The translations under genes were made by a program, and so were the position numbers. Source: Elusimicrobiota bacterium (GTDB taxonomy: Bacteria > Elusimicrobiota > UBA8919). From it: 64,000 bases of DNA. The stretch covers positions 97-64,096 of the forward strand of contig JAZDKR010000024.1 in the NCBI GenBank assembly GCA_043802785.1. Reading direction: 5' to 3'. Positions 4,444-48,882 of this stretch are shown piece by piece. Numbering within the stretch: the stretch's first letter is position 1; each line of letters opens with the position of its first letter. The notes below the pieces were generated by a model that saw only the letters and a list, made by a program, of their open reading frames with translations, was not told the origin of the DNA and ran no database searches.

Positions 4444-5805
4444 TCACGGCCGTATCAGAATACCATGCACTTTTAATATCTGCATCGCCATCTCAAGAAT
4501 CTCATCTTTTACTATATCTTTTTGCCCTCCGGACACCGTCGTAGATGTTTTTACATCATACCTGCCTGACGGCTCGCCTCGCCCTCTTATCGTCGAGGAT
4601 GGCTGCGAAGCGGGCTGCCGAGCAGGTTTTTTGTCCCTGTCTCTGGCATCCGCAATTTCAGTATCAATCTCCTGTTTTTGAAGTGATATCTCTGCTTCTC
4701 GGCTAACCTCAACAACTATGTCTGGTGTAATGCCGCCTGTTTTCTTTTCTTCGTCACGATGAATACATTTTCCCGACGGTGTGTAATACTTCTGTGTCGT
4801 AAGTCGCAAAGATGACTCGCCTTCCAAAGGAAGCAATGACTGCACGGAACCCTTGCCGAATGACTGCATTCCAACAATAATTCCCCTTTTATTATCCTGC
4901 ATACAACCGGCAACTATTTCACTGCCGGATGCGGAACCTTTGTTGACAAGAACGGCAAGCGGAATATCGGAATATGGAGCCGTAGCATCAGCACGATATT
5001 CATATTTTGGAAACTTTCTGCCCTGTGTATAGACGATAAGTTTGTTTTCGCCGATAAATCTTTTACAGATGTCCGCCGCGGTATTGAGCAGCCCACCTGG
5101 GTCGTTTCTTAAATCAACAATTAGTGACTTCATTCCCTTGCTTTTCAAATCTAACAATGCCTTGTCAAGTTCTTCAATTGTCTTGGCAGTCATCTCGGTA
5201 ATTCTAAAGTATCCGATTGACTCGTCCAACATTTTTGTGCAAGTTACAGTAATAATGGGAATATCCTCACGAGTGATTGTTAAATCAAACGGCTCAGTTT
5301 TTTCCCGAAATATCGTAATTGTAACTTTCGTTCCGGGTTTTCCGCGAAGTTTTTCTACTGCTTTATCCGTTGAAATATCTTTTGCACTTTCGCCGTCAAT
5401 TTTTATAATTTTATCCTCGGGCAAAATTCCCATTCTCCATGCGGGCGTTCCGGGGATAGGTGTGACAACCGTAATCCATCCGTCTTTTGAAGATGTAATT
5501 CTGATGCCGAGCCCTCCGAAATGTCCTTCGGTATGAACCTTCATTTCTTTCGCTTCCTGCGGCTCCATAAACTGTGAATACGGGTCAAGAGTTCTTATCA
5601 TACCGTCGGCCGCACCGTAAATAAGTTTTTTCATATCCGGCTCGTCCACATAACTTTCACGGACATAAACTAATATCTGTGACAAAATTTTTATCTGTCC
5701 GTAAATATCGTCACTGGCAGCTTTTATGGTATCAAATTTGGACAGCGACACACTTATTACAAAAAACAAAACAGCGACAAAAACCCAACCTTTTTTCTTT
5801 AACAT
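4444..5805 (-). CDS. ctpA: C-terminal processing peptidase, family S41 (CtpA/Prc-like), with a PDZ domain. Carries an in-frame repeat insertion near the C-terminus, at about 4555-4626.
   Basis: Signal anchor, PDZ domain, GSASGSEIVAG and a conserved S41 core. The insertion encodes PARQPASQPSSTIRGRGEPSGRYD. Confidence 0.8.
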   Translation of the reverse strand: MLKKKGWVFVAVLFFVISVSLSKFDTIKAASDDIYGQIKILSQILVYVRESYVDEPDMKKLIYGAADGMIRTLDPYSQFMEPQEAKEMKVHTEGHFGGLGIRITSSKDGWITVVTPIPGTPAWRMGILPEDKIIKIDGESAKDISTDKAVEKLRGKPGTKVTITIFREKTEPFDLTITREDIPIITVTCTKMLDESIGYFRITEMTAKTIEELDKALLDLKSKGMKSLIVDLRNDPGGLLNTAADICKRFIGENKLIVYTQGRKFPKYEYRADATAPYSDIPLAVLVNKGSASGSEIVAGCMQDNKRGIIVGMQSFGKGSVQSLLPLEGESSLRLTTQKYYTPSGKCIHRDEEKKTGGITPDIVVEVSREAEISLQKQEIDTEIADARDRDKKPARQPASQPSSTIRGRGEPSGRYDVKTSTTVSGGQKDIVKDEILEMAMQILKVHGILIRP

Positions 5806-5949: not shown

Positions 5950-7194
5950 TTATTTCAGCCACACCAGCGGGTCCTGCGGAACACCATTTTTGCGAAATTC
6001 AAAATACAACGACGCATCCTGCGAATAGACGGAAATACCGACGATACCGATATCTTCACCTTTCTGAATATCCTGCTCCTCTTTAACATTTATCTTGTCA
6101 AGATTACCATAAACCGTGTAAAATCCGCCGGAGTGGTCAATAACAACCATTTTTCCGTACGACTTAAAATCGCCCGCAAACACAACTTTTCCTTTGTCAA
6201 CCGCTGCGATATTTTGTCCGAGCGTTGACCTAATCCTGATTCCATTATTTATAATCCATGTATCAAGTTCCGGATGCTTTTGTTTGCCGAAAGTTACAGT
6301 TAAATTATTCCTTAATTCCGACGGTTCACCGTCAATAGGCCATGATATATTACCTTTCTTTTTTGACATTTTTAATCTTTCTAATTGCTCTTCCTCTTTT
6401 TGTCTAACAGTTTTAGTTGCTTTTTTTTCCAAAAGTTTTATTAACTCTGAAAGCATCGTCTCTGAATCCCGCAAATTTGCAACCTCCTGCTCATAAAAGA
6501 CCAGTTTTTTAACTACGGTTGATAATAATTTTTTTTTTTCTTTTTTTTGTCGTGCGTACAATTGTTCAGAGTTTTTTTTCTTTTCTTCAAGTTCTTTTAA
6601 TCCGTTCATCTCCGTTTCAAGTTTTATTTTAATTGTTTCATATTCCTGAACATTTTTTAGCGTCTGCGTGTAAATAAACAATTTTTGCCGTGCTAAAAGT
6701 TGAAGAAACTTATACTGTTTAACCATATCAGCAGACGAATTTGAAGAAAGTATTATTCTTGCAGGATACTGGTCGGTCATGGGTCTCCCTACACCATATT
6801 TATATGCAAATCTTAATTCTTTTTTAAATATATTTTTCCATCTAACCGTTTCAAATTTTGCAGTTTCTAATTTTAATTTCAGTGCATCAATTGATTTTTG
6901 CTGTTTTTTTATTAGTATTTTTGTTCTGTACAATTCGGCTTTTGTGGTTTCAAGTTTCCTTACAGTATTTTCAAGATGCGTTTCAAGAGATGCCTCTTTC
7001 TTCTTTATGGTTTTTATATTATTTTCTTTATGAGAAATTTCCGACTGAACACCGACAAGTTCTTTTCTACTTTCTTTAATTTTCTGTTTATATTCTTTTA
7101 CCTGTTTATCATAATCGGAAGCATAAAGGGCAGGGGTTAGGGTATAGGGTATAGGGTATAGGAAAAGCAAAAACAATAAAATAAATTTTTTCAT
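5950..7194 (-). CDS. envC: Coiled-coil M23 peptidase-domain protein, resembling the murein hydrolase activator EnvC.
   Basis: Signal peptide, a long coiled coil and a C-terminal M23 domain (VVIDHSGGFYTVYGNL). Lies next to ftsX. The N-terminal LYPIPYTLTP stretch is encoded by (GGGTATAG)3. Confidence 0.7.
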   Translation of the reverse strand: MKKFILLFLLFLYPIPYTLTPALYASDYDKQVKEYKQKIKESRKELVGVQSEISHKENNIKTIKKKEASLETHLENTVRKLETTKAELYRTKILIKKQQKSIDALKLKLETAKFETVRWKNIFKKELRFAYKYGVGRPMTDQYPARIILSSNSSADMVKQYKFLQLLARQKLFIYTQTLKNVQEYETIKIKLETEMNGLKELEEKKKNSEQLYARQKKEKKKLLSTVVKKLVFYEQEVANLRDSETMLSELIKLLEKKATKTVRQKEEEQLERLKMSKKKGNISWPIDGEPSELRNNLTVTFGKQKHPELDTWIINNGIRIRSTLGQNIAAVDKGKVVFAGDFKSYGKMVVIDHSGGFYTVYGNLDKINVKEEQDIQKGEDIGIVGISVYSQDASLYFEFRKNGVPQDPLVWLK

Positions 7195-7195
7195 T

Positions 7196-7552
7196 TTATT
7201 TTCTCAATGCTTTCATAAGCGACGATAACATTTTTCCAATTTCTTCTTGTAAACTGCAAACTTTTACAAAACCTTCTTGACTAATATATCCTAAATCTTT
7301 CGCAACCATAACTTGTGTTTCCAATTCTGCTAACGAACCAAATGCTATTGATAAAAACTGTAAATATTCGCCTGTATATTGCCTCCCATATCCTTCCGCT
7401 ATGTTTGATGGAATTGAAACTGACGCCCTTCGCATCTGCGATGTAAGTCCATATATTTCCGTTTTTGGAAAATCCATTGTGGTTTTATATATCAACAATA
7501 CCAACTGATACGATTTTTGCCAAACTATAAGTTCCCGATAACTCTTAAGCAT
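7196..7552 (-). CDS. Four-helix-bundle protein of the family found in 23S rRNA intervening sequences.
   Basis: About 118 aa. The family motifs (IVWQKSYQL ... IPSNIAEGYGR ... FLSIAFGSLAELETQ) are recognisable. Confidence 0.7.
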   Translation of the reverse strand: MLKSYRELIVWQKSYQLVLLIYKTTMDFPKTEIYGLTSQMRRASVSIPSNIAEGYGRQYTGEYLQFLSIAFGSLAELETQVMVAKDLGYISQEGFVKVCSLQEEIGKMLSSLMKALRK

Positions 7553-7566
7553 ACATTCACTATTCC

Positions 7567-8412
7567 CTATCCCCTATCCCCTGCCTTTTTAATTCTTACC
7601 ACAAGGCATATAATCATCAGAACGATAGAACTTATTATAATTTCCGATTTGCTAAAAAAAACAGGTGTTTTGAAGTTTTGAACGAAAATATGTTCATTCA
7701 TCAGATATAAAATATAAAAGCCAATCCCGCCCCCTATAATAGCGTCTATCATGCCAAAAAAGATTTTTTTATCTCGCATAGCAGACACAGCGAGCGATAA
7801 CGAAACAACTGAAATAACAACAAATATAGCAAAAATTAAGTTCAGCCATCCGATCAAAGTATTGAATGTTTTATTTATAGTTAATAGATTTTCCGCTTCA
7901 ATTGAAGTGTAATAGATATCTTCCACACCGCTGAGTATTTTTATTTCTTCCGCAATTTTTTTTACAATTTCCGGATCTTTTCTCTTTAAGTAAATATCAA
8001 CAGTTGCTGGCAACGGATTTTCTCCAAGAATTTCCATCTGTTTGGCAAACTCGGGATTTTTTCTGAATTCATCCATTGCTTCCGTTTTTGAAGTATATTT
8101 TATTTTGTCAATTATTTTTATATTTTCAATTTTTTTGATAAGTTCGTTTTTCTGATGAACATTTAATTTATCGTCAATAAATGCAACTATTTCAACCCGC
8201 TCGGAAAGTTCGGAAAGATAGTAGGAAAGATTTTTCACGATAAGTGAAAAAAAACCGTAAAACACAACCGAAATTGTAACAAATGCTATAACAAGCAGCC
8301 CCTGCAGATTTCTTTGAAATCTAACCACAGGAGCAGGTGATATTTTTTTCATAACGGACTTCATTGTACCATATTTTAACTGCATGTCAACCAACAACCC
8401 TTCACTCTTCAC
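7567..8412 (-). CDS. ftsX: Cell-division permease-like protein FtsX.
   Basis: FtsX-like topology: one TM helix, a periplasmic domain and three C-terminal TM helices. Sits next to the EnvC-like gene. The C-terminal KAGDRG and the TAG stop are encoded by the GGGGATAG repeat. Confidence 0.65.
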   Translation of the reverse strand: MKSEGLLVDMQLKYGTMKSVMKKISPAPVVRFQRNLQGLLVIAFVTISVVFYGFFSLIVKNLSYYLSELSERVEIVAFIDDKLNVHQKNELIKKIENIKIIDKIKYTSKTEAMDEFRKNPEFAKQMEILGENPLPATVDIYLKRKDPEIVKKIAEEIKILSGVEDIYYTSIEAENLLTINKTFNTLIGWLNLIFAIFVVISVVSLSLAVSAMRDKKIFFGMIDAIIGGGIGFYILYLMNEHIFVQNFKTPVFFSKSEIIISSIVLMIICLVVRIKKAGDRG

Positions 8413-9554
8413 TCTTCACGGACTTCTAACCCAGATATGCACAATTCTGCCGTCTTTTTTGACTTATTTTGCAAATCATCTATAACCGCAAACATTTTCT
8501 CCGAATTGTTCTTATCTATTTTATCCAAAATCTGCGAATATATTTTTTCATTGCTATCGTAAATAGGTTCTCCTATCATCTGTAAAAAGTTTTTAATTTT
8601 CGAATATCGTGGTATCGGAACAAAAGGAATTTTATATTTTACAGCCAGAATTAATCCATGCAACCTCATACTTACTATTATGTAAAGTTTAGAAAATAAT
8701 TCCAAAAGTTGCCCTGTATCATTCCATACAAAAATATCAACCGGAACATTTGTATTATTCTTGATTACATTCAGCAATTTTATATCTTTTGACAACTGAA
8801 ACGGTATGAGAACAACTTCGGCTTTCAAGTTTTTTACAATCAAATCGGACAGTTCGGAAAATACTTGGACATCTTTTTTCCAATTTTTTGTTTTTCTTAA
8901 AATTATCCCAACCATTTGTTTTTTAGGTAGAGAACGGTCTTCTTGGAAATCCGCCAAAGTTTTAATGGTGGGCTTGCCCGCCGATGGTTCAGTGGATAGA
9001 GACCGTTCAATTGAGATGACAGGGTCTAAAGACCCTGTTCTACCTCGTACTTTTAAGCCGAAAACAGGGTCAGCCGTAACAGTAATTTCTTTATTTATTC
9101 CAAAAGATACGAGCAACTTCTTATCTTGCTCCGTTCTTACCGTGATAAAATCAACATTGTTGAAACACTTTTTTATCAAAAAAATATTGAATGAATATCT
9201 AATTTCTCCAATTCCGGTGGCATAAATAAAAACGGTTTTTTTGAAAATTTTTGCGGTTAAAATTATCAAAAGATAATACCACAAACTTAATATGCCTGTT
9301 GTATCCTGAAAAAGTCCGCCGCTGCCTGATAACAGCATTTTACATTTTGCAATTTCCTTGACGATAGAAAAAACATTCCATCTGTTGACGGCACACACAT
9401 TATGCTCATTAGAAGTTTCGTTTGGTGTAGCGGATAAAACGGTAATGTTAACATCCGGCTTGTAAAACCGTAGGTCAGTTATCATTGCCTTGAGAATAAG
9501 TTCATCTCCGGCATTTTTGAAACCATAATAACCGGAGATAAGTATATCAGCCAT
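8409..9554 (-). CDS. csaB: Polysaccharide pyruvyl transferase (CsaB-like). Carries an in-frame repeat insertion at about 8966-9062.
   Basis: N-terminal ISGYYGFKNAGDELIL is typical of the pyruvyl transferase family. Confidence 0.7.
   Translation of the reverse strand: MADILISGYYGFKNAGDELILKAMITDLRFYKPDVNITVLSATPNETSNEHNVCAVNRWNVFSIVKEIAKCKMLLSGSGGLFQDTTGILSLWYYLLIILTAKIFKKTVFIYATGIGEIRYSFNIFLIKKCFNNVDFITVRTEQDKKLLVSFGINKEITVTADPVFGLKVRGRTGSLDPVISIERSLSTEPSAGKPTIKTLADFQEDRSLPKKQMVGIILRKTKNWKKDVQVFSELSDLIVKNLKAEVVLIPFQLSKDIKLLNVIKNNTNVPVDIFVWNDTGQLLELFSKLYIIVSMRLHGLILAVKYKIPFVPIPRYSKIKNFLQMIGEPIYDSNEKIYSQILDKIDKNNSEKMFAVIDDLQNKSKKTAELCISGLEVREE
8966..9062. repeat. Palindromic element with core gaccgttcaattgagatgacagggtctaaagacc, sitting in-frame inside csaB.
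   Basis: The same core is found in reverse orientation inside glnN at about 26085-26150. Both copies read through in frame. Confidence 0.7.
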
Positions 9555-9695: not shown

Positions 9696-11161
9696 ATATA
9701 AATCAAAATTATTCCCAAAATCAAACCTAAAAAAATCCCGTTAAAACTTCTCAAAAGCGAAACAAAAAAAGGAGTGTGTATGTGGCAGAATGTATTAATT
9801 ATTGAAATCTGACCTATAATACCGACGATAAAAAACGGTTTCCACAAACTAACCCCACAGGTAAGTGTGGGGTTAGTTTTGTATTTCAGATAAATTGCCA
9901 ATATCATAAAAGGATGACCTATTAGGAATTCCTTAAATCGTGGTCGGACATAAAATATTTTTTCTAAAAACAGACGAAAATTATCTTCTAAAGGTGTAGT
10001 TGAACCATAATTCCCGGTTCTGATGATATAAAAGCCAACTGCAATCAGTAAAAATCCAATAAAAATTGCTTCGCCATACAAAAGCGGTTTTTTCAGAAAA
10101 TTTTTTAAGTTACTTTTATACAGCAAATAAATTAAACATATCACTGGCAACAAAAAGGATATTTTTACTCCTCTAAATGTTTCAACGCCAAGCATAAAAT
10201 CTTTCGTGGATAAAAGTGATGATATTACTGTGCCTGATAAAAGTGAAAAAACTGTTATGACTGAAAAAATCAAAACGGTTTTTATTACCGAAAACTTCCC
10301 GTTAAAATTGTAACAAAAACATAGTGGTAAAAGACAAATTACCGGCGATATCAGTGCTATAAGAAATGAAAATAATTTTGTTAGTCCAACATATCTTGTA
10401 AGTTTGGGATTTACTTTTCCGATTACTTCGGGTTTGCCAATACAAAATCCGGAATTTTCAAGAATTTTCTTTGATTCTTTAATATATTCAAGAGCATTAT
10501 CAAGCGTTGTTTGGGACAAGTCCAGAATTATTATTCTAACATTTCTTTCAAATGCAGCACGATTTATCTTTTCTCCGATGGAGTCCCATTGGACAAGATT
10601 TTTTTTATAATCGGCATCCCATCTCAACTTAAAAACTCTGTAACCGCTGCCGGAATTTTTAAGTATTTTTTTAACTTCTTCCTGTTTGGCAAATTCAACA
10701 ATTCCGAATGTATAATTAAAATTATCTGGTATTTCGCCATAAAAATCGTCAGATAAAATGACTGCCAAAACATTCGGATTTTTTCTTGGGATTATGGAAA
10801 TATCGCCCTGAACCGAAAAAATAATATCAAGATTCAATTTTGAAACGACTGAAATTTTTTCTGATGAAACGCCAAGATATTTTTCCTGTGGAAATTTTTT
10901 GAATTCTGCATCCCCATTACCTTCGGCAAAAAAATCCTTCGCTTTTTCGTCGGAAATGACAACAGTATTTATTCCAGCAATTCTAAAATCTGTTAATTTT
11001 TCTACACCGAAAAAATCCACTATATCGTCATATTTAACGGCAAGTGCAACAGAATTACCGGACTGCTCGCAAATCCTGTTCTTTAACGGAGTAAATAAAA
11101 TTCCTAACAGAATTAAAAGAAAACCCGTGTAAATTAAGACAATTTTTAAAATTTTTTTCAT
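9647..11161 (-). CDS. Polytopic membrane protein of unknown function, with an N-terminal extracytoplasmic domain and a C-terminal block of about 8 TM helices.
   Basis: Hydrophobicity pattern only. I see no recognisable catalytic motif. Confidence 0.4.
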   Translation of the reverse strand: MKKILKIVLIYTGFLLILLGILFTPLKNRICEQSGNSVALAVKYDDIVDFFGVEKLTDFRIAGINTVVISDEKAKDFFAEGNGDAEFKKFPQEKYLGVSSEKISVVSKLNLDIIFSVQGDISIIPRKNPNVLAVILSDDFYGEIPDNFNYTFGIVEFAKQEEVKKILKNSGSGYRVFKLRWDADYKKNLVQWDSIGEKINRAAFERNVRIIILDLSQTTLDNALEYIKESKKILENSGFCIGKPEVIGKVNPKLTRYVGLTKLFSFLIALISPVICLLPLCFCYNFNGKFSVIKTVLIFSVITVFSLLSGTVISSLLSTKDFMLGVETFRGVKISFLLPVICLIYLLYKSNLKNFLKKPLLYGEAIFIGFLLIAVGFYIIRTGNYGSTTPLEDNFRLFLEKIFYVRPRFKEFLIGHPFMILAIYLKYKTNPTLTCGVSLWKPFFIVGIIGQISIINTFCHIHTPFFVSLLRSFNGIFLGLILGIILIYIKTRIDANKWHANTRE

Positions 11162-15280: not shown

Positions 15281-15352
15281 ATTCAGGATTAAGTCGTAAG
15301 GATTAAGAAGTCAGGATTAAGAATTAAGTAAAAACTTAATCCTGCTTTTTTT
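15281..15352. repeat. GGATTAAG tandem repeat with an inverted copy, followed by a T-run. This forms a terminator-like hairpin on the plus strand.
   Basis: Sequence caggattaagaattaagtaaaaacttaatcctgcttttttt. Confidence 0.6.
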
Positions 15353-17999: not shown

Positions 18000-18365
18000 G
18001 ATTGTTGGTAATAAAGATTAGGAGATTAGGAAAAAGAGTTAACTCCTCAAAACCAATTACTACTGCTGTGTCCCTAATTTCTTGACATTTGGCTGTTCCC
18101 GACAAATCGGGGCTCGTGGCAATCTCGGTATTAAAGTCGGGATTGCCTGCCCGACAGCTGTCAGGCGGGCTTCGGGCTTTGCCCTCGCAATGAGGCCGTG
18201 TCACAATTACCGTTTTTTTTGGTTTTGTCATTCCCGCATGTCTTTGGCGGGAATCCATTCTTCGACAATGACACAACTTGCTGGATTCCGTGTCAAGCAC
18301 GGAATGACGGACTTTTCAACAATTATGACACAGCCGCAATGACATGTAAAATATTTTATGCCCCC
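18000..18365. repeat. Cluster of nested palindromic elements spanning about 360 bp with no coding capacity.
   Basis: Motifs gtcattcccgc / cgggaatcc, ggattccgtgtcaagcacggaatgacgg and cgcaatgac. The plus-strand ORFs here (17965-18488) are artefacts of the repeats. Confidence 0.7.
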
Positions 18366-19452: not shown

Positions 19453-19625
19453 AAAAACCCCTCCTTTTTTCAGTAGTAAGGATTAAGTTATAAGTTATAA
19501 GAATTAAGAAGTCAGGATTAAGAATTAAGTAGTAAGAATTAAGTAAAAACTTAATCCTTAATCCTTAATCCTTATCATTTACCACTTACCACTTACCACT
19601 TAATCCTACCTTGCCTTATTCTACC
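19453..19625. repeat. Arrays of GGATTAAG / CCTTAAT and CCACTTAC tandem units forming inverted repeats.
   Basis: Sequence aggattaag(n) ... cttaatccttaatccttaatcc ... ccacttaccacttaccactt. Confidence 0.7.
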
Positions 19626-25781: not shown

Positions 25782-28091
25782 TTAATAGACAAAAAGCATT
25801 TCTCTGTATTTCGGAAGAATCCAGTATTCGTCCCCGGTATGTTCTTCAAGGGCGTCAACCGTTTCCCTTAAATTGTACATCAAAGGAATTATTTCCATGC
25901 AATAGAAATTTGCCTTTTCGTCTTCTCGTTCTATTTTTTCCTTTTTGTCAAGCACGGACTGAAGTTTCTCTGTCTTTTCGTAAAGTTCTACGACAAGTTT
26001 TGAATACATTGAGACAATTTCCGATTCTTTTTTCAGCACTTTGGCATCAATTCCATTTATGCAAGGTAGGACAGCCGAGTAGGTTCGCCTGTGGCGAAGG
26101 TCTTTAGACCCTGTCATCTCGGTTGAACGGTCTAAAGACCGTTCACTACCATTCATTGAAATTCCTAAACATGACCTTAAGTTATTTACCGACTCTGCCA
26201 AAACATTCTGATATTTGACTACTGCGGGAAACACAAGTGTTTTAGCCATCATCAAAACGGTCTCAACTTCTATATTTACAACTTTTATGTACTGCTCAAC
26301 CAATATCGTGTAAATTGATTCTATCTCAACTTCGCTCAGAACATTTAATCTTGTGAAGACATCTTTATTTTTTTTGGTTACAAGGTCTTTCAACGATTCG
26401 GGTGTGGTTTTTTTATTCGGCAATCCGCGTTTTTTTGCTTCTTTTTCCCAGGCAGTATCATAGTTGTTACCTTCAAATCTTATTGGCGCTGTTTCAGTTA
26501 TTAAAGGAATAATCGCTTTTAATACAACCCTGTTAATATCTTTCTCTTTTTTCAGATTATCCTCTATTTCTTTATAGAGGTCGTTCAGAACATCGGCGAC
26601 AATAACATTCAGCGTATAATTTGCCATCGCAATAGAATGTGATGAACCCACCGCTCTGAACTCAAACTTGTTGCCGGTAAACGCAAATGGAGAAGTCCTG
26701 TTTCTGTCGCTAGTGTCTCTATTTATCGTCGGTAATTTGCCGATACCCATATCTATAATTGCCTTATCACTATAATCCGCTTTTTTATTTTTTTCCAGAT
26801 TGTTTAGAATTTCTGTGAGTTGTTCTCCCAGAAATATGGAAATTATCGCAGGTGGTGCCTCGTTTGCACCTAATCTATGGTCATTACCGGCTGTCGCAAC
26901 AGTTGCCCGCAACAAATCAGAATACTTATAAACGGCTTTCATTGTAGCGAGCAGGAAAGTTAAAAACTGCAAGTTTGCATGCGGCGTTTTGCCTGGTTCA
27001 AGTAGATTCGTACCGTCGGAATCCGCCATGGACCAGTTATTGTGCTTTCCAGAACCGTTTATGCCCAAAAACGGTTTCTCGTGCAATAAGAGTGCGAGAT
27101 TGTGCCTGTTTGCAATCTTCTTTAATGTTTCCATTATTATCTGGTTATGGTCGGTGGCAACATTGCTGTCCTCAAACAACGGTGCGATTTCAAACTGTGC
27201 AGGAGCAACTTCGTTGTGCCTTGTTTTCACGGGAATTCCAAACTTAAAAAGTTCTAACTCCGAATCATGCATAAACGCAAGAATTCTTTCCCTGATGCTG
27301 CCAAAATAGTGATCCTCCATTTCCTGACCTTTGGGCGGTTTCGCACCGAATAATGTTCTGCCGGTAATGATTAAATCCGGTCTTCTGTTGTAATATGCTT
27401 TGTCAACCAAAAAATATTCTTGTTCGGAACCCACAGTCGCATAAACCCTGTTTATTTTTTTATTTCCGAAAAGGTGCAATATCTTTACGGCAACTTCACT
27501 TAATCTGTCCATTGAACGCAGAAGCGGCGTTTTTTTATCCAATGCCTCACCCGTATATGATAAAAATACACAGGGAATGCAAAGTGTTGTGCCGTTGACG
27601 GCTTCAACCAAAAATGCCGGCGAGGTGGGATCCCACGCAGTATAACCCCTCGCTTCAAAAGTACTTCTCAACCCACCGCTTGGGAAAGAAGAAGCATCTG
27701 GTTCGCCTTGTATAAGATTGCTTCCTGAAAATCTTTCTATGATTTTACCATCTTTGCTGAAACTCAGAAAACTGTCATGCTTTTCCGCCGTCAAACCCGT
27801 CATCGGATGAAACCAGTGAGTAAAATGTGTCGCACCTCTGCCAATTGCCCATTCTTTCATACCTTGTGCAACTTCTTCCGCTAATATCGGTTCAACTCTC
27901 CCGCCTTCCTTGATTATTTTTTTTAACGCTTCATATGTTTTGTAAGGCAGATGTTTTTTCATTGCCTCGTCGTTAAAAGAGTTCATCCCGTATATTTCCG
28001 AGATAGGTTTCCCTTTCATTTTCGTGCTAATCGTCTGGCATAAATTTCTCTGGTTTGTAATTTCTGAAATTATCTGTTCTCTGTATTGCAT
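25782..28091 (-). CDS. glnN: Glutamine synthetase type III. Carries an in-frame repeat insertion at about 26046-26160.
   Basis: 769 aa. The N-terminal HFTHWFHPMTGLTAEKHDSF and the overall length fit GSIII. The insert encodes MNGSERSLDRSTEMTGSKDLRHRR. Confidence 0.8.
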   Translation of the reverse strand: MQYREQIISEITNQRNLCQTISTKMKGKPISEIYGMNSFNDEAMKKHLPYKTYEALKKIIKEGGRVEPILAEEVAQGMKEWAIGRGATHFTHWFHPMTGLTAEKHDSFLSFSKDGKIIERFSGSNLIQGEPDASSFPSGGLRSTFEARGYTAWDPTSPAFLVEAVNGTTLCIPCVFLSYTGEALDKKTPLLRSMDRLSEVAVKILHLFGNKKINRVYATVGSEQEYFLVDKAYYNRRPDLIITGRTLFGAKPPKGQEMEDHYFGSIRERILAFMHDSELELFKFGIPVKTRHNEVAPAQFEIAPLFEDSNVATDHNQIIMETLKKIANRHNLALLLHEKPFLGINGSGKHNNWSMADSDGTNLLEPGKTPHANLQFLTFLLATMKAVYKYSDLLRATVATAGNDHRLGANEAPPAIISIFLGEQLTEILNNLEKNKKADYSDKAIIDMGIGKLPTINRDTSDRNRTSPFAFTGNKFEFRAVGSSHSIAMANYTLNVIVADVLNDLYKEIEDNLKKEKDINRVVLKAIIPLITETAPIRFEGNNYDTAWEKEAKKRGLPNKKTTPESLKDLVTKKNKDVFTRLNVLSEVEIESIYTILVEQYIKVVNIEVETVLMMAKTLVFPAVVKYQNVLAESVNNLRSCLGISMNGSERSLDRSTEMTGSKDLRHRRTYSAVLPCINGIDAKVLKKESEIVSMYSKLVVELYEKTEKLQSVLDKKEKIEREDEKANFYCMEIIPLMYNLRETVDALEEHTGDEYWILPKYREMLFVY

Positions 28092-28109
28092 TGTTTCGCC
28101 TCCTGTTCA

Positions 28110-28160
28110 GGATTAAGGATTAAGTAGTAAGGATTAAGTTTTTTCTTAATCCTGCCTTTG
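28110..28160. repeat. GGATTAAG hairpin (aggattaag tttttt cttaatcct).
   Basis: Lies between glnB and glnN. Confidence 0.65.
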
Positions 28161-28196
28161 TATTTTATTAAATAAATCTTGGAATGTCAAATTTTT

Positions 28197-28727: not shown

Positions 28728-29311
28728 CTATTCAATCAAAGTATATGCACCCTCTTGATGCTGGGTCAAATCAAGTCCAATTATCTCATCTATTTCGCTT
28801 ACCCTGACGCCGATGGTTAAATCAACCAATTTGTAAATGATAAATGTCATCGCAAAAGTATAGACAACGGTAACACAAACTGTAATTAACTGCATTATCA
28901 ATTGTTTCGGGTTTCCGAAAAAAAGACCGTTGTTGCCCGCTGGATTTATCAATTTTGAAGCAAAAAGACCCGTTGCCAAAGTTCCTAATATGCCGCTGAT
29001 ACCATGCACCCCAAAAGCATCAAGGGAATCGTCATAGCCCAATTTTGGTTTGATAAGACCGACCGCAACAAAACAGATAACACTAGCCGAAAAACCTATC
29101 AGTATAGCCGATATAACGGCGAAAAAGCAAGCGAGTATCCGAATAAAACCCATTGCAAACTCAAAACGCAAAGAACAATAAAGCACTGCATTAAAATGCC
29201 AAGAACATTTTTTCTTCTAACTATTCCTCCGTAAAAAAATGCAAGCCCTGTCGTCATCAACATCACAAACCCAGCCGATATCAAAACAAAAGCAGTATCT
29301 CCAGAATTCAT
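28728..29311 (-). pseudogene. amtB: Ammonium transporter relic. Only the N-terminal roughly 65 residues and the C-terminal roughly 140 residues remain, in different frames.
   Basis: The two ORFs 29099-29311 and 28728-29186 match the Amt N-terminus (GDTAFVLISAGFVMLMTTGLAFFYGGIVRRKNVL) and C-terminus (DAFGVHGISGILG ...). The span is 584 bp against about 1.2 kb expected. Confidence 0.75.
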
Positions 29312-29465
29312 ATTTCCCCCTAAACAAAAAAGTCCCTAATTCCACTTTTCCCACTTTGGAATTAAAGACCTCAATGTCTAACGAAAATTTTCTAACCGAC
29401 TCTGGCTACTATGAGGACTACATCGTCCTTTACTTTAATTATATCAAAAGCAATATAATTTTGCT

Positions 29466-29588
29466 AATGACTAACTTTTAGATGTTTTTCTCTCCAATCC
29501 TGATGAAGAACAATCGCCGCCATAATAACTGCAAAAAGTATTAACATCCCAAGACCAATATAAAGACCAATATCTTCCATATTCATTC
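29466..29588 (-). CDS. Small hydrophobic peptide of 40 aa (MNMEDIGLYIGLGMLILFAVIMAAIVLHQDWREKHLKVSH), translationally coupled to the upstream gene.
   Basis: An aaaggagaa ribosome-binding site and an ATGA stop/start overlap. Has a paralog at 30560-30652 with the conserved C-terminus KEKHLKVSH. Confidence 0.5.
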
Positions 29589-29786
29589 TCCTTTATCAAT
29601 AATGGTTCCAATAATTACAAATATTATCCAAAAACTCGCACCTAAAAATATCCTGATAATATTTAACTCTCCTGCTACAAAAGAGCCCAAAATAATTATC
29701 GCAAAAACAAAGTTGGCTGCGTTAAAAAATGCTTTTGCTAAATTTTCTCTTTGTTTTTTTGTAAAATTCATTCTGAGCATAATCAT
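29583..29786 (-). CDS. Small two-TM membrane protein of about 62-67 aa.
   Basis: Has a paralog at 30646-30858 (TKKQ(R/K)ENLAK(A/V)FFN ...). Preceded by a conserved promoter. Confidence 0.55.
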   Translation of the reverse strand: MIMLRMNFTKKQRENLAKAFFNAANFVFAIIILGSFVAGELNIIRIFLGASFWIIFVIIGTIIDKGE

Positions 29787-29815
29787 ACAAAATTATCAAA
29801 TTTTGTCAACCCCGT
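29787..29815 (-). promoter_or_regulatory. Sigma70-type promoter, TTGACA-N16/17-TATGAT. The -10 element overlaps the start codon, so the mRNA may be leaderless.
   Basis: Minus strand reads ttgacaaaatttgataattttgtatgattatgctcagaatg. Conserved in the copy at 30859-30887. Confidence 0.55.
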
Positions 29816-30077
29816 CAGAAAGAATTCCAAAATTTCTAACGTGGTCAAGTGCTTTTTTGGTTTTCCCGAATGAAAAATCTTTAATCCCACTTTGGAATTA
29901 AAGACCTCAATGTCTGACGAACATTTTCTAACCAACTATGGTTTGTAAACTATTTTTTAACTAATACAAACAAAATATATCTTGTTACATATTCTCACTG
30001 TTGTCATTGCTTCGTTGTCCCGACTTGTCGGGACTCCTCGCAATGACGCTTTGCATCAATTTACTCCCGAGCGACCT

Positions 30078-30420
30078 TCATATTTCTGTTGGTATAACCT
30101 CTTTTGAGCGAAACTCTTTTGGGACATAAATATATCCGGAATATGGTTTTTTTTCTTTAACAACCATTCCGGCAAGACCTTCGCCTATTTTAAGTGGTGG
30201 TTTTTTCAAATACTCATTTGAAATTGACTGGGAAGCCCTGATTACAAGTTCATTGTTTTCATTTAAAAGCATTAACGAACATATCTTGAAACCAAATACT
30301 TCAGCAGTAATTGTTACAATCAATTTAAGGATATCGTCAAGATAAAGTTCTGAAGTTATTGCCTGTGATATTTTAGTGAGTGCCTCTATTCACTTACACT
30401 TTTTTCTTTCATATTTTTTT
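30078..30420 (-). pseudogene. Truncated, frameshifted paralog of the GAF-ANTAR gene at 24823-25515. Only the N-terminal third remains.
   Basis: About 70 percent identity to residues 30-120 of the full gene, plus an upstream stretch in another frame. No ANTAR domain. Confidence 0.7.
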
Positions 30421-30559
30421 CCTCCACAAAATAAAAAATCCTCATACCGTCTTTGGCGGATGGCAACATATCATCCGCCTATGGCATGAGGACTACATCG
30501 TCCTTTACTTTAATTATATCAAAAGCAATATAATTTTGCTAATGACTAACTTTTAGATG

Positions 30560-30652
30560 TTTTTCTTTTCTATTCTGGTTAATAACAATTCCACCGATAA
30601 CCAAAGTAAAAGCTAACGCCACAAAAAATAACAAAGTAATCTCATTCATATC
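30560..30652 (-). CDS. Small hydrophobic peptide of 36 aa, the second copy.
   Basis: MNEITLLFFVALAFTLVIGGIVINQNRKEKHLKVSH. Same coupling arrangement as the first copy. Confidence 0.5.
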
Positions 30653-30858
30653 CCGTCTCCTGTATCAAGTATCACACCAATAATTAAAAACGCAAGAAAC
30701 AATATTACACCAACAATAAATGTAAATAGCGAAAATTTATCTGGCGTGGCGATTTTTCCTATAATAAGGGAAGCAAAAACAATTTGACTTAAATTAAAGA
30801 AAACTTTTGCTAAATTTTCTTTTTGCTTTTTTGTTAATTTCATTTCTGACATAATCAT
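30646..30858 (-). CDS. Small two-TM membrane protein, the second copy.
   Basis: Paralog of 29583-29786. The promoter TTGACA-N17-TATGAT is conserved at 30859-30887. Confidence 0.55.
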   Translation of the reverse strand: MIMSEMKLTKKQKENLAKVFFNLSQIVFASLIIGKIATPDKFSLFTFIVGVILFLAFLIIGVILDTGDGI

Positions 30859-31081
30859 ACAAAATTAAAAAAATTTGTCAAGTACTTTTTTTGAGAGTTA
30901 TTCAGGTTTGTGGCAAAAATATGAAGTTATTAAATTGTCAAGCCAGAAATTTATTGTATCATTTCCGTATCATCATTGTGAGATTGGTATTGTCAAAAAT
31001 AAAATGAAAAAAAAGACTACCACGAAAACACGTCTGACTGCCATGCCTGTCGTCAGCAGGCGTGGCTATGCTTCTATATTT

Positions 31082-34609: not shown

Positions 34610-34735
34610 ACTTCTTAAATCAGAATTAAGACATCAGTAATAAGGATTAAGCCGCTCACCCCGACAAGTCGGGGTTCGCTTTAAGTATTAAGTTTTTTCT
34701 TAATCCTTACAACTTAATCCTTAATCCTGCTTCTG
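34610..34735. repeat. GGATTAAG hairpin element with an embedded ccccgacaagtcgggg hairpin.
   Basis: Read directly from the sequence. Confidence 0.6.
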
Positions 34736-36524: not shown

Positions 36525-36625
36525 ACACCAGAGATTAGGAGATTAAGAAATTATGAGATTAGGGATGAGGCAAAATCTCAATATCCTAATCTCCTAATCT
36601 CCCAATCTCCTAATCTCTCTTTTTT
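36525..36625. repeat. GAGATTAG tandem and inverted hairpin element.
   Basis: Sequence cagagattaggagattaagaaattatgagattaggg ... ctcaatatcctaatctcctaatctcccaatctcctaatctctc. Confidence 0.7.
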
Positions 36626-38172
36626 ATCACCTGTCTCCCTCTCGCAATTGCCAGTTTATTGTCAGGAACATTCTCAGTAATGGTTGAGCCGGCAGCAATC
36701 AAAACCCCTTTTCCTATTTTAATAGGCGCAATGAAATTAGTATTGCTTCCGACGAATGTGGAATCGCCAATTTCCGTTTTATGTTTATTTTTACCGTCGT
36801 AATTACAGGTAATCGTGCCGGCACCTATATTTATATTTTTTCCGAGTGTAGAATCACCGATATATGAAAGATGTGAGACCTTTGTATTTTCACCAATAAT
36901 TGATTTTTTAATCTCCGAGAAATTACCGATGAGAGCGTGCCTTGCTATTTTTGTTTCCTTTCTTATATGAGAAAACGGACCTACTCGGACATCGTCGGCA
37001 ATTTCGGCTCCGCAAACAAAAGATGCCTTTATTTCAACATTTTTTCCGACGATGCAATCCTCAATATAACTAAAAGGTCCAATCGTGCTGCCCGTTTTTA
37101 TTTTCGTTTTGCCTTTGATAATTGTTGAAGGTAAAATAGTGACATCTTTTTCAATCTCAACCGTTTCCTCTATGTGAACTGTCCCGGGATTGACAATCGT
37201 AACGCCGGCGAGCATTAGATTTTTAAGAACCTTTTCTCTGATGTAATTCTCCGCTTGGGCAAGTTCGCATCTGTTATTTATTCCCATAATTTCCTTGAAA
37301 TCCTTAATTTTATAGGCGATAACTTTTTTGCGGGAACCGCTTCGACTTAAAATTGACACAACATCCGTCAGATAATACTCGCCTTTTGAATTATCGTTTT
37401 TTATCTCGCGCAGTGCAGAAAAAAGTTCTTTCGACGAAAAGACATAAATACCTGAGTTGATTTCCTTTATTTTTTTGATTTCATATGAGGCATCTTTTGC
37501 CTCAACAATTGACTTAACCGTTCCATCGATATTTCGGACAATTCTTCCGTAATGCGAAGGATTTTCTATCTCGCAAGTAAGCACTGTCGCAACAGCTTTT
37601 TCTTTTTTGTGAACTGATAGCAATTTGTCAACAGTTTCTTTCGTAAGAAGCGGAACATCACCGGAAAGTATAACCAAATCGCCTGTTCCCTCACAACGGG
37701 ACTCCGCACATTTAACAGCATCACCGGAACCAAGTTGTTTTTCCTGTTCAACAAAAACCACCTGACTAAGAGGTTGTCCGACAACCCCTGTTTTTTGGTT
37801 TTGACCGTCATTCCGTGCTTGACACGGAATCCATTCTCCGACGGTAACACAATTTTCTGAGAGCCTGCCCCGCGCTTTGACACGGGGGACCTTTTGACCA
37901 TTGTCGGACAACCTCCCAAGAGCCGTCATGCTTGCCATTCTATCGCTTATCGCTTTTTTGACAAGTTCTGCTTTGTGCCCTACAACGACAATTTTTTTAT
38001 CAAAACCGTTGTCTATAATTTCAATGACCCTTTCAATAATTGTTTTGCCCAAAATTTTATGAAGAACTTTCGGCGTTTCCGACTTAAACCTTGTTCCTTC
38101 ACCTGCAGCAAGAATAATACAAACAATACTTCCCATAGCAATTGAAATACAATGGAACCACGATGGAGACAC
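36610..38172 (-). CDS. glmU: Bifunctional GlmU (UDP-GlcNAc pyrophosphorylase / GlcN-1-P acetyltransferase). Carries an in-frame insertion of about 60 aa, at about 37764-37947.
   Basis: N-terminal LAAGEGTRFKSETPKVLH, a C-terminal left-handed beta-helix (hexapeptide) domain, and the glmU-prs-rplY-pth synteny. The insert encodes WIPCQARNDG, which is also present in a spurious ORF in the 18000-18365 repeat block. Confidence 0.85.
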   Translation of the reverse strand: MSPSWFHCISIAMGSIVCIILAAGEGTRFKSETPKVLHKILGKTIIERVIEIIDNGFDKKIVVVGHKAELVKKAISDRMASMTALGRLSDNGQKVPRVKARGRLSENCVTVGEWIPCQARNDGQNQKTGVVGQPLSQVVFVEQEKQLGSGDAVKCAESRCEGTGDLVILSGDVPLLTKETVDKLLSVHKKEKAVATVLTCEIENPSHYGRIVRNIDGTVKSIVEAKDASYEIKKIKEINSGIYVFSSKELFSALREIKNDNSKGEYYLTDVVSILSRSGSRKKVIAYKIKDFKEIMGINNRCELAQAENYIREKVLKNLMLAGVTIVNPGTVHIEETVEIEKDVTILPSTIIKGKTKIKTGSTIGPFSYIEDCIVGKNVEIKASFVCGAEIADDVRVGPFSHIRKETKIARHALIGNFSEIKKSIIGENTKVSHLSYIGDSTLGKNINIGAGTITCNYDGKNKHKTEIGDSTFVGSNTNFIAPIKIGKGVLIAAGSTITENVPDNKLAIARGRQVIKKRD

Positions 38173-40591: not shown

Positions 40592-40786
40592 GTGAAACAA
40601 CTGGATCATGCAAAATTACAAACTTTATCACTAAAGTTGTCTCGGTATTCAAAATTCGCTCACTCGGAACGCTTAACAAAATTTAACAAAGTTCTGTTAA
40701 CTGATGATAAAATGATTACACAGATTAAAAGCCAAATTACATTCACCCCGTTAGATAAGATTCTCTATCTAACGGGGCAGGAATAA
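40592..40786 (+). CDS. Hypothetical small protein of 64 aa. It is the only non-overlapping plus-strand ORF.
   Basis: ORF only; I see no recognisable motif. Confidence 0.2.
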   Translation: MKQLDHAKLQTLSLKLSRYSKFAHSERLTKFNKVLLTDDKMITQIKSQITFTPLDKILYLTGQE

Positions 40787-40824
40787 ACCCATTTTTTAAC
40801 CTGTGTAATCAGACATCCTTCTCT

Positions 40825-47155: not shown

Positions 47156-47232
47156 ACCGCTAAACTGACGCTAAACTTTGAAAACCCGCGAAACTAACGC
47201 GAAATGTTTTGCGTCTGTTTTGCGGTTGTTAG
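47156..47232. promoter_or_regulatory. ACGCTAAA / ACGCGAAA phased array (B2), upstream of metK.
   Basis: Sequence ccgctaaactgacgctaaactttgaaaacccgcgaaactaacgcgaaatgttttgcgtctgttttgcg. Confidence 0.55.
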
Positions 47233-48882
47233 ATTATCACAAATTTTTTCGGCAAAATCAAGTAATTTTTTTGTTTTGCCGAGTGAATCTGTTTCAGAGT
47301 ATGTCCTTAAAATCGGCTCTGTTCCCGACGGACGAAGCAATAGCCAACCTGTCCCGCCAAGGCGGGACGGATCAAAAATTATTTTTATTCCGTCATAGGT
47401 TCTGATTTCCTTGATCCCGCCGAGGCGAGACGCGAATTGCCACGAATTTCCGCCAAAGGCGGACGAATTGGGACGAATTTTTTGTTCAATCTGTTTAACA
47501 AATTCTTGCTTATCAACGGGCTTTGAAAGTTTTATATCTCTTCTTAAATAATATGATTTCCCGAATCTTTTTTGCAAATCATCAACTAACTGTGAAAGTT
47601 TTTTCTTTGTTTGCGAAAGCATCTCGGTAATTAAAAGTGCATTTAAGATACCGTCTCGTTCCGGTATGCTGCCTTTCCATCCGTAACCGCCGGATTCTTC
47701 ACCACCGAGCAAAACATTTTCAGCGAGCATTTTTTCACAAACATACTTGAAACCGACAGGAACCTCTTCAAAAGGGAGACAAAATTTTTTCGCAATTCTT
47801 TCGGAAAGATACCCAAGTGAAATCGCCTGAACAACTTTTCCTTTTATTTTTCTTCCTTCTACAAGATACAACAAAATCAGAGGAAAAACAATATGCGGTG
47901 AAAGATATCTGCCTTTGTCGTCTATAACACCCAAGCGGTCAGCGTCGCCGTCAAAAGCAAAACCTACGGCTGCCCCATTTTTCAATACCACTTTTTTTAG
48001 TTCTGTGAGATTTTTTTCTATCGGCTCGGGATTTACTCCGGCAAATAATGGGTCATGAGAATTATGTATTGAATAAATCTTTGAGATTCTTCGTCCCGTT
48101 ATGCGGGACTCAGAATGACTTTGCGAGTCATTTTTGAATCCGCCACAGACGGACTCAAAAATACCAACGCCGCTTCCATGCATATAATCAAGGACAATTT
48201 TGGATTTTGATGATGGATTCAATCTAACAAGTGATTTCAGATATTTTTTGTAATCGCTGATAATATCCACTCTTCGCGTCATTGCGAGGTCGTCACTGCG
48301 ACCTCGCAATGACAATTGTTGGATATCCTCATTATTAGTTTTGACAGCACTCTTATACAGATGTTTTGAAATTGTATTTATGATTTTTTCCGAAACAGAA
48401 CCTCCGTATTGAAGTTTTATTTTTAGACCGTTCCAGTCGGGCGGATTATGACTTGCCGTTATCATCACCCCAAGACAATTGTTTTTTTTACAAAAAAATG
48501 AGACCGATGGCGAAGTTGCTGCCGTCTGCGAAACCGCCGAATGTATCCCATTCGCAGAAATAACTCTTGCAACATGGAGTGCAAATTTCTCCGAAAGAAA
48601 CCTGTTGTCATACCCGACGATAACGACAGGGGATAGGGGGTAGGGGATAGGGTGTAGCGGCGAATGTAAATTCGCTAAATTTGTCCGCCTAGGCGGACCG
48701 CTACACCCTACTCCCTCCACACTACACTCTGCCTTTATATAATCCGCAATCGCCTGAGCAACTATTCCAACATTCTCAAAGGTAAAGTCCCTTGCAATTA
48801 TCCCGCGCCACCCGTCAGTACCAAACTTAATGGCAGGGGATAGGGGATAGGGGATAGGGGATAGTAGTTTTTGTTTTTCCAT
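47194..48882 (-). CDS. Phosphomannomutase / phosphoglucomutase family enzyme carrying about five in-frame repeat insertions.
   Basis: FGTDGWRG, TASHNP, RPSGTEP. Inserts at about 48834-48870, 48627-48729, 48270-48312, 48069-48132 and 47415-47472. Confidence 0.8.
   Translation of the reverse strand: MEKQKLLSPIPYPLSPAIKFGTDGWRGIIARDFTFENVGIVAQAIADYIKAECSVEGVGCSGPPRRTNLANLHSPLHPIPYPLSPVVIVGYDNRFLSEKFALHVARVISANGIHSAVSQTAATSPSVSFFCKKNNCLGVMITASHNPPDWNGLKIKLQYGGSVSEKIINTISKHLYKSAVKTNNEDIQQLSLRGRSDDLAMTRRVDIISDYKKYLKSLVRLNPSSKSKIVLDYMHGSGVGIFESVCGGFKNDSQSHSESRITGRRISKIYSIHNSHDPLFAGVNPEPIEKNLTELKKVVLKNGAAVGFAFDGDADRLGVIDDKGRYLSPHIVFPLILLYLVEGRKIKGKVVQAISLGYLSERIAKKFCLPFEEVPVGFKYVCEKMLAENVLLGGEESGGYGWKGSIPERDGILNALLITEMLSQTKKKLSQLVDDLQKRFGKSYYLRRDIKLSKPVDKQEFVKQIEQKIRPNSSAFGGNSWQFASRLGGIKEIRTYDGIKIIFDPSRLGGTGWLLLRPSGTEPILRTYSETDSLGKTKKLLDFAEKICDNLTTAKQTQNISR

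Follow-up and report, generated by a model that had tools for sequence, protein, structure and literature searches.

A palindromic element inserted in frame in csaB and glnN of an Elusimicrobiota genome is probably a head-to-head dimer of GTAG-tagged REP units

Repetitive extragenic palindromes (REPs) are bacterial stem-loops of 20-40 bp that carry an unpaired GTAG or CGTC at one end. According to excerpts of the survey by Di Nocera et al. 2013 (PMC3733652), they often form head-to-head dimers with the tags outside, in which the loops are sometimes large and structured and extra DNA may lie within either partner or between the two. Such dimers are the REPINs (REP doublets forming hairpins) and BIMEs (bacterial interspersed mosaic elements) of the literature (PMC3733652; Bertels and Rainey 2011, PMC3337134, both in excerpts). 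In the same survey excerpts, GTAG REPs are thought to be mobilised by REP-associated tyrosine transposases (RAYTs) and REPs downstream of open reading frames (ORFs) to act on transcripts; intragenic REPs are reported from several species, more than half of them being dimers or groups that encode 20-30 residues, and the Rickettsia palindromic elements (RPEs) RPE-4 and RPE-6 are assigned to the CGTC class. Rickettsia elements form in-frame insertions in genes (Ogata et al. 2000, 2002, as summarised in excerpts of PMC10969869 and PMC3733652). Here, we analysed a 64-kb window (the whole stretch of DNA under study) of an Elusimicrobiota metagenome-assembled genome (MAG), in which a palindromic element occurs twice: in csaB, encoding a polysaccharide pyruvyl transferase, and, inverted, in glnN, encoding type III glutamine synthetase (GSIII). 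This element probably consists of two GTAG-tagged REP units joined head to head and inserted within genes in frame, i.e. it is a selfish element that is both REPIN-like and RPE-like.

The initial annotation had claimed that csaB and glnN share one palindromic sequence in inverted orientation. Both strings were found where it had placed them, and its gene names agree with the Pfam assignments (PF04230 for csaB; PF12437, PF00120 and PF18318, i.e. GSIII_N, Gln-synt_C and Gln-synt_C-ter, for glnN). The NCBI names of identical proteins assign the contig to an Elusimicrobiota MAG. A repeat search of the window identified a core of 33 identical nucleotides out of 35 (94%) between 9000-9034 (+) and 26099-26133 (-), to which a blastn-short comparison of both loci assigned E = 8e-10. 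Within this core, the 34-mer GACCGTTCAATTGAGATGACAGGGTCTAAAGACC is exact at 9001-9034 (+) and has two mismatches (TT versus CC) at 26099-26132 (-), while 100 dinucleotide-preserving shuffles yielded no match, so that the similarity of the two loci is not at or below the level of chance. All three window occurrences of the 12-mer GGTCTAAAGACC fall within the two copies. Moreover, two further shared pieces flank the core, namely GGTAG[A/T]GAACGGTCTT (8926-8941 (+) and 26150-26135 (-)) and CTGT[T/C]CTACCT (9035-9045 and 26074-26064), and both keep the same order and orientation relative to the core at the two loci.

The bare element measures ~62 nt, and its two copies are identical at 58 of 62 positions once the nested segments private to each copy (see below) are removed; with these, the csaB copy spans 121 nt and the glnN copy 86 nt. 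The element is built from unit a (GTAG-W-GAACGGTC-TTTA-GACCGTTC), a 10-nt spacer (AAYYGAGATG) and unit b (ACAGGGTC-TAAA-GACCCTGT-Y-CTAC). Read on the opposite strand, unit b becomes GTAG-R-ACAGGGTC-TTTA-GACCCTGT and thus follows the design of unit a. The two units are therefore inverted with respect to each other, and their GTAG tags point outward and can pair as GGTAG/CTACC. Both stems are perfect over 8-9 bp and enclose loops of 4 nt. A single nucleotide separates the tag from the stem in each of the four window units, and the same holds for three loci outside the window that are described below (L006, L007 and L010) and for a nested 24-nt hairpin. The structural hallmarks of a GTAG head-to-head heterodimer, i.e. 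a stem-loop unit, an end tag and inverted pairing with a spacer, are thus all present.

RNAfold places each GGTCTWWAGACC at the tip of its own 8-9-bp hairpin, with pairing of the two 12-mers as an alternative fold. An outer stem carrying two hairpins is the fold of an idealised 62-mer (-33 kcal/mol, z = -6.2) and also of the csaB copy (z = -6.2 for RNA of the - strand and -4.8 for the + strand). For the glnN copy (z = -3.2 and -3.3 for the - and + strand, respectively), the fold favoured by RNAfold is the alternative one, with unit a paired to unit b. By these z-scores, all three greatly exceed shuffled sequences in stability. The long hairpin of the alternative fold is the stem-loop of the initial annotation, which thus holds as an alternative fold, whereas the bare element is composed of two inverted hairpin units. 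The proposed size of ~40 bp understates the inserted DNA, which amounts to 111 bp in glnN and ~120 bp in csaB.

Each copy was later struck by another small hairpin. In csaB, a palindromic segment of 58 nt occupies the loop of unit a and prolongs its stem in the fold, while the corresponding arms in glnN are separated by TTTA alone; no second copy of this segment was found in the window. In glnN, a 24-nt segment that takes the form of a small GTAG-tagged hairpin interrupts the 3' arm of unit b and is missing from the csaB copy. The pattern GTAGNTTCGCC..GGCGAA matches the window once (26079-26098; 0 expected), and neither the window nor the comparison loci contain other copies of the 24-nt segment.

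The copies in csaB and glnN are insertions relative to every orthologue examined, and both are situated in variable linker regions. GSIII comprises 769 residues here, as compared to 732 in its closest orthologues and ~730 in most homologues. The initial annotation had asked whether GSIII orthologues lack roughly 35 residues; precisely 37 (residues 641-677) are missing in 11 of 11 aligned orthologues of 66-92% identity. At the DNA level, three empty sites (L001, L016 and L017) join TTAAGTTC directly to TGTYAARGGAATTGATGCC, with a gap of 111 bp that corresponds to window 26061-26171. The insert coincides with a break in the alignment to the Bacteroides enzyme (PDB 3o6x, chain residues 634-658). 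In an AlphaFold model of GSIII, which is poor overall (mean predicted local distance difference test score, pLDDT, of 47) and was used for the local helix-coil-helix picture alone, it appears as a coil (pLDDT 25-38) between helices 587-641 and 683-719 (pLDDT 70-90). CsaB has 381 residues, as compared to 351-359 in most orthologues, and ~29 of these are missing in 11 of 11 aligned orthologues, with the surplus falling in a linker that varies among them. The orthologue gaps in both genes thus support the earlier proposal of an in-frame insertion in two unrelated genes and in opposite orientations.

Neither copy shifts the reading frame or introduces a stop codon, and the peptides quoted for them by the initial annotation were correct. 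Six-frame translation shows that only one of the three frames is stop-free across the element in each orientation; in the forward orientation this is the frame read by glnN, and in the reverse orientation the one read by csaB. The use of both is explained if only non-disruptive insertions survive in needed genes. The open frame within the element also keeps the antisense ORF 8806-9225 open, which does contain EMTGSKDPV as annotated. The peptides differ between the two orientations, and the inserts are presumably translated as hydrophilic loops of 29-40 residues. Yeast mitochondrial byps are reportedly GC-rich, mobile palindromic inserts in coding sequence that are translationally bypassed. Byps break the frame or carry stops and are skipped by the ribosome, whereas the inserts described here are in frame and open and thus need no bypass.

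Taken together, we envisage the element as a small non-autonomous mobile repeat with two copies in the window. It would spread in the form of single-stranded DNA hairpins with the help of a trans-acting transposase, which, by analogy with GTAG REPs, may be a RAYT, i.e. an HUH tyrosine transposase. In essential genes, survival would be limited to insertions in tolerant loops whose length is a multiple of three and which are free of stops, and the translated loop would have no function for the host.

The distribution of the element was then assessed in larger sequence collections. The exact 22-mer GAGATGACAGGGTCTAAAGACC had no match in 185,579 species genomes and JGI metagenomes; thus, neither the source genome nor any high-copy relative is part of those collections. 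A degenerate pattern that both window copies meet (GGGTCTWWAGACC N0-30 CTGTYCTACC) occurred at two places in the species genomes, both in the cold-seep MAG CSMAG_2763. At the first (L006, 4581-4608), 28 of 28 nt are identical to window 9019-9046, i.e. to unit b and its tag. This copy is extragenic, 7 nt past the stop codon of an ORF, and its locus recurs in a JGI metagenome (L010). At the second (L007, 3054-3076), a variant of unit b is located between divergent genes and followed by a T-run. No further DNA or protein similarity to the window was found at L006, L007 or L010, and a comparison of shared-domain proteins revealed no orthology between CSMAG_2763 and the relative of the window. The L006 match therefore shows that another genome contains a single unit in the form of an ordinary extragenic palindrome. 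A different hairpin family, CCCCGTTAGAT...ATCTAACGGGGTGAATGT, is present at window 40746-40790 and at ~2975-3030 of L007, where it is GTAG-tagged, so that the window genome and CSMAG_2763 share more than one palindrome family.

In six metagenome contigs of 68% GC (L009, L011-L015), the hairpin GCGGGTCTWWAGACCCGC lies between tandem arrays of the 9-mer TGTCCTACC that are inverted relative to each other. We rejected these as evidence of homology, because the shared hairpin and 9-mer were imposed by the search pattern, and regard them as a lead only. Scans of viral contigs with the two-hairpin and the core pattern returned unrelated tandem repeats only. A phage contig from IMG/VR (L005, 3420-3540) harbours at least six tandem 21-nt repeats with ACGGTCTAAAGACC, which equals the hairpin-tip palindrome; by their appearance, these repeats are probably an iteron or operator array unrelated to the element. 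A phmmer search with the 37-residue insert against 1.84 billion representative proteins gave one match, a HEAT-repeat protein (GSERALDRLIELT), which we judge to be a chance resemblance. An intein was rejected because the insert is too small and its two orientations give different peptides, a template/variable pair of a diversity-generating retroelement because the differences are not adenine-specific, and a sequencing adapter because the reading frame is kept and the two copies are no longer identical.

Several observations weigh against an assignment as a mobile REP dimer. High copy number is among the defining features of REPs. The known set comprises only two dimers and two or three monomers, and exact and degenerate scans of the two large collections revealed no high-copy genome. 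Both window copies are intragenic and none is intergenic, which is the opposite of the usual REP distribution, although n = 2. Pfam searches detected no transposase domain, Y1/RAYT included, in the 58 ORFs of the window, nor did a search of the 8 ORFs next to the L006 and L007 copies reveal a transposase. A RAYT gene is usually present as a single copy, typically flanked by the same REPs, and its absence from 64 kb therefore says little. Finally, the glnN insertion includes 25 nt (21 + 4) outside the palindrome, and GGAATT, preceded by a stretch rich in TG, flanks the insert on either side and is present once in the three empty sites. This repeat, which perhaps extends to TGYWTA-GGAATT, could represent a target duplication of 6-13 nt whose copies have diverged, and IS200/RAYT-type (HUH) enzymes are not known to make target duplications. 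At csaB, no target duplication was seen and ~27 nt of the relative's linker have apparently been lost. Judging from the filler and possible duplication in glnN and the loss in csaB, neither event was a clean insertion, which is why a classical miniature inverted-repeat transposable element (MITE) is retained as the main rival.

As a MITE, the element would use its outer AGGTAGA...TCTACCT ends as terminal inverted repeats for the DDE transposase of an insertion sequence (IS) located elsewhere, and one would expect a parent transposase gene with the ends GGTAGAGAAC / AGGTAGAGAAC and a target duplication upon insertion. The outer inverted repeats of ~15 nt (AGGTAGAGAACGGTC and AGGTAGAACAGGGTC) and the GGAATT flanks at glnN are consistent with this, and 62-121 nt lies within the MITE size range given in the excerpts of PMC3733652. 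However, the inverted repeats are mostly hairpin arms with GTAG directly at their foot, and CSMAG_2763 contains lone half-elements (hairpin plus tag), as expected of REP monomers but not of MITEs. Furthermore, the putative duplicate copies at glnN diverge far more than the copies of the element, csaB lacks a visible duplication, and no IS with these ends is present in the window. We thus consider a MITE unlikely.

A clearly smaller chance is given to hairpins that were retained for a function, be it as mRNA stabiliser, pause site, terminator-like RNA or useful surface loop. With energies down to -52 kcal/mol, the folds are highly stable, and the extragenic copies of CSMAG_2763 are found just downstream of an ORF (L006) or before a T-run (L007), the kind of position in which published REPs have been proposed to act on transcripts (PMC3733652). 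Nevertheless, the opposite orientations relative to the genes yield different peptides and RNA hairpins with different loops, close relatives do without the inserts, the nested segments differ between them, and the many unrelated palindromes in other genes of the window point to a general invasion, so that a function appears very improbable. Even less probable is a one-off event, in which part of a lineage-specific loop in one gene was copied once by illegitimate recombination or template switching. Such an event would agree with the two copies known in the genome and with the non-palindromic filler and signs of local rearrangement at both sites, but not with a 28/28 identical unit in an unrelated context of another genome or with the tag-plus-hairpin form of a known mobile class; the nested hairpins and the many other palindromes inserted in genes nearby speak for repeated activity instead. 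An artefact of metagenome assembly or binning, or an ancestral segment deleted in the relatives, is hardly credible. In its favour, the source is a MAG, the GSIII protein has no exact match on another contig and its 90%-identity cluster has one member. Against it, both inserts are stop-free and keep the frame, their substitutions, different nested segments and unique flanks are unlike a repeat-induced chimera, and an ancestral segment would have been lost many times given its absence from all orthologues of 66-92% identity.

The element is not the only palindrome in the coding sequence of this genome. At least six other genes of the window contain in-frame palindromic insertions that belong to other repeat families, several of them of the CGTC type (Table 1). 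We compared 11 orthologous genes with contigs of a close relative (L002 among them), whose GSIII is 92% identical when the insert is not counted. In-frame insertions of at least 6 residues were found in 5 of the 11 genes (csaB, glnN, the DUF5693 gene with two, ftsX and the S41 peptidase gene), as compared to two deletions of 4-5 residues each. The inserts at the S41 peptidase, ftsX, DUF5693 and epimerase sites encode 6-22 residues, and all inserted DNAs tested fold as hairpins (z of -2.0 to -7.7).

Clear cases by comparison with solved structures are the inserts of glmU and ahcY. The glmU insert is framed by a perfect 15-bp outer stem (GAGGTTGTCCGACAA...TTGTCGGACAACCTC) and contains two inner hairpins. 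Among these is a CGTC-tagged hairpin of 29 nt (CCGTCATTCCGTGCTTGACACGGAATCCA, 37805-37833) that encodes EWIPCQARNDG and recurs perfectly, in inverted orientation, just downstream of recA (18282-18310). A related unit, TGTCATTCCCGC...GCGGGAATCC (18225-18256), adjoins the copy on the recA side and is of the dRS3/CGTC-1 type by appearance. The 8-bp stem of the ahcY hairpin is also found within a gene for a family 2 glycosyltransferase (52066-52084). The palindrome in the phosphoglucomutase-like gene is in frame, encodes SLRGRSDDLAMT and has a DNA fold of z = -7.7; it is probably an insert as well, judging from the alignment to the best structural match, which is gapped there. The element of csaB and glnN is therefore one of several families of tagged palindromes that entered coding sequence since the divergence from the relative.

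A broader reading is a genome-wide burst, ongoing or recent, in which several unrelated palindrome families of the GTAG and CGTC type were inserted in frame in a large share of the housekeeping genes. At least 9 of ~58 window genes are affected, i.e. ~1 per 7 kb, a density that would exceed that of Rickettsia conorii, and at the 5 affected genes for which a comparison was possible, none of the inserts is present in the close relative. We regard such a burst as possible rather than probable.

Table 1. Coordinates of the palindromic element, its host genes and further palindromic features of the 64-kb window.
Feature	Position	Strand	Description
csaB (polysaccharide pyruvyl transferase), host of copy 1	8409-9554	-	PF04230, E = 7.7e-37
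glnN (type III glutamine synthetase), host of copy 2	25782-28091	-	PF12437, PF00120, PF18318
Copy 1, head-to-head dimer	8925-9045	+	antisense to csaB; encodes GRTGSLDPVISIERSLSTEPSAGKPTIKTLADFQEDRSLP; inverted-repeat ends (AGGTAGAGAACGGTC and GACCCTGTTCTACCT), fold, absence from orthologues
Unit a, copy 1	8927-9008	+	GTAG 8927-8930; 5' arm GAACGGTC 8932-8939; 3' arm GACCGTTC 9001-9008
58-nt extra segment in loop of unit a, copy 1	8942-8999	+	palindromic, GGTGGGC-TTGC-CCGCC core
Spacer, copy 1	9009-9018	+	AATTGAGATG; in glnN copy AACCGAGATG
Unit b, copy 1	9019-9044	+	ACAGGGTC-TAAA-GACCCTGT, then T-CTAC-C (GTAG on the other strand); perfect 8-bp stem
In-frame insertion in glnN, 111 bp	26061-26171	-	encodes CLGISMNGSERSLDRSTEMTGSKDLRHRRTYSAVLPC, residues 641-677
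Copy 2 proper, 86 nt	26065-26150	-	sense to glnN; from GGTAGTGAACGGTC to CTGTCCTACC
Unit a, copy 2	26125-26149	-	GTAG (26149-26146), T, GAACGGTC-TTTA-GACCGTTC; perfect 8-9-bp stem
Unit b, copy 2	26065-26114	-	ACAGGGTC-TAAA-GACC, 24 inserted nt, CTGTCCTACC
24-nt segment in 3' arm of unit b, copy 2	26075-26098	+	GTAG-G-TTCGCC-TGT-GGCGAA
21 nt on 5' side of copy 2	26151-26171	-	TGTTTAGGAATTTCAATGAAT; non-palindromic, within the 111-bp insertion, contains GGAATT
S41 peptidase gene insert	4561-4626		in frame, compared with relative L002
ftsX insert	8296-8334		in frame, compared with relative L002
DUF5693 gene inserts	9851-9868 and 10574-10594		in frame, compared with relative L002; hairpin fold known for 9851-9868
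glmU insert, 57 residues (79-135)	37768-37938		gene 36610-38172 (-); no counterpart in solved GlmU structures
ahcY insert, 22 residues	44538-44606		missing in PDB 7o5l; hairpin GTCCCGAT-TGT-ATCGGGAC
Palindrome in phosphoglucomutase-like gene	48278-48313		gene 47194-48882; perfect 12-bp stem GTCATTGCGAGG...CCTCGCAATGAC
Palindromic site in epimerase gene	50828-50861		in frame; folds as hairpin; known from sequence alone
Examples of heptamer arrays	15285-15343, 19469-19572, 28095-28167, 34681-34729, 7125-7161, 48621-48864

In nearly all intergenic regions of the window, a central hairpin is bordered by tandem arrays of heptamers in inverted orientation, which fall into several families and include AGGATTA, GGGATAG, ATTCGCG and AATCTCC. 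An array-hairpin-array layout, with the 9-mers TGTCCTACC around a GGGTCTWWAGACCC hairpin, is also seen in the 68%-GC soil metagenome contigs L009 and L011-L015. The amtB gene is apparently degraded (28728-31000) into a C-terminal (28728-29186) and an N-terminal fragment (29099-29311), its relatives being 408-412 residues long. Beside these fragments, we found a truncated paralogue with a GAF domain (30078-30323) and two duplicated segments (29411-29536/30486-30611 and 29722-29809/30794-30881), each with an ORF for a small membrane protein. Between the M23 peptidase gene and ftsX, positions 7196-7552 encode a 23S rRNA intervening-sequence protein (bAvd-like four-helix bundle). As the M23 peptidase gene and ftsX overlap in relative L002, this gene is a lineage-specific insertion. 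An Rfam scan of the window detected one tRNA and nothing else.

The phenomenon as such, i.e. selfish palindromes inside genes, has already been published for Rickettsia and other bacteria, while the host phylum and the sequence family of the repeat are apparently new. Our findings extend protein-coding palindromes to the Elusimicrobiota, in an environmental MAG, and place GTAG- and CGTC-type repeats side by side in the coding sequence of one genome. In practical terms, such inserts lengthen proteins, disturb alignments and orthology calls, can break metagenome assemblies and give rise to spurious ORFs on the antisense strand, 8806-9225 being one. Close relatives seldom offer the same site in a filled and an empty state, and such natural pairs can serve to study how REP-type elements insert and how much additional loop an enzyme such as GSIII tolerates. 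The more interesting possibility is the unusual density of in-frame palindromic inserts across the genome. If the whole genome is like the window in this respect, proteins with recent loops derived from repeats would number in the hundreds, and the possible target duplication in glnN would then hint at a route of insertion unlike that assumed for RAYTs.

How does the element compare with the known systems? Bacterial MITEs such as Correia, ERIC, BOX and RUP (reviewed in PMC10969869) are likewise small and non-coding, with inverted ends and strong structure, and occasionally form in-frame fusions inside ORFs. Their definition, however, requires target duplications and terminal inverted repeats of 15-30 bp that derive from a parent IS, whereas here the units also occur as lone monomers and a duplication is uncertain at glnN and absent at csaB. 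With the RPEs, the element shares the presence of in-frame palindromic repeats in unrelated housekeeping genes whose orthologues lack them, extra peptide segments that are compatible with the fold, and several families per genome. In contrast, RPE-4 and RPE-6 carry CGTC and not GTAG, RPE-1 measures ~100-150 bp and encodes a conserved peptide of ~45 residues where the present element yields a different peptide per orientation, and the Rickettsia host is an obligate intracellular alphaproteobacterium, as opposed to an environmental Elusimicrobiota MAG. The likeness to the RPEs is therefore one of behaviour and not of sequence family.

GTAG REPs and REPINs differ from the element in some respects. 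The Elusimicrobiota are outside the eight phyla listed in the excerpts of PMC3733652, and the stem GGTC-TWWA-GACC matches no family in that part of the survey text. Moreover, both window copies are intragenic, the copy number may be low, no RAYT gene was found in the window, and a target duplication is possible at glnN. Their architecture, in turn, is shared. It comprises units of ~25 nt with 8-9-bp stems, 4-nt loops and an unpaired GTAG at the end, arranged as inverted units with outward tags and a short spacer that can fold as two hairpins or as one long hairpin. Loops enlarged by structured DNA, extragenic monomers just downstream of ORFs and intragenic dimers that encode peptide segments are likewise common to both.

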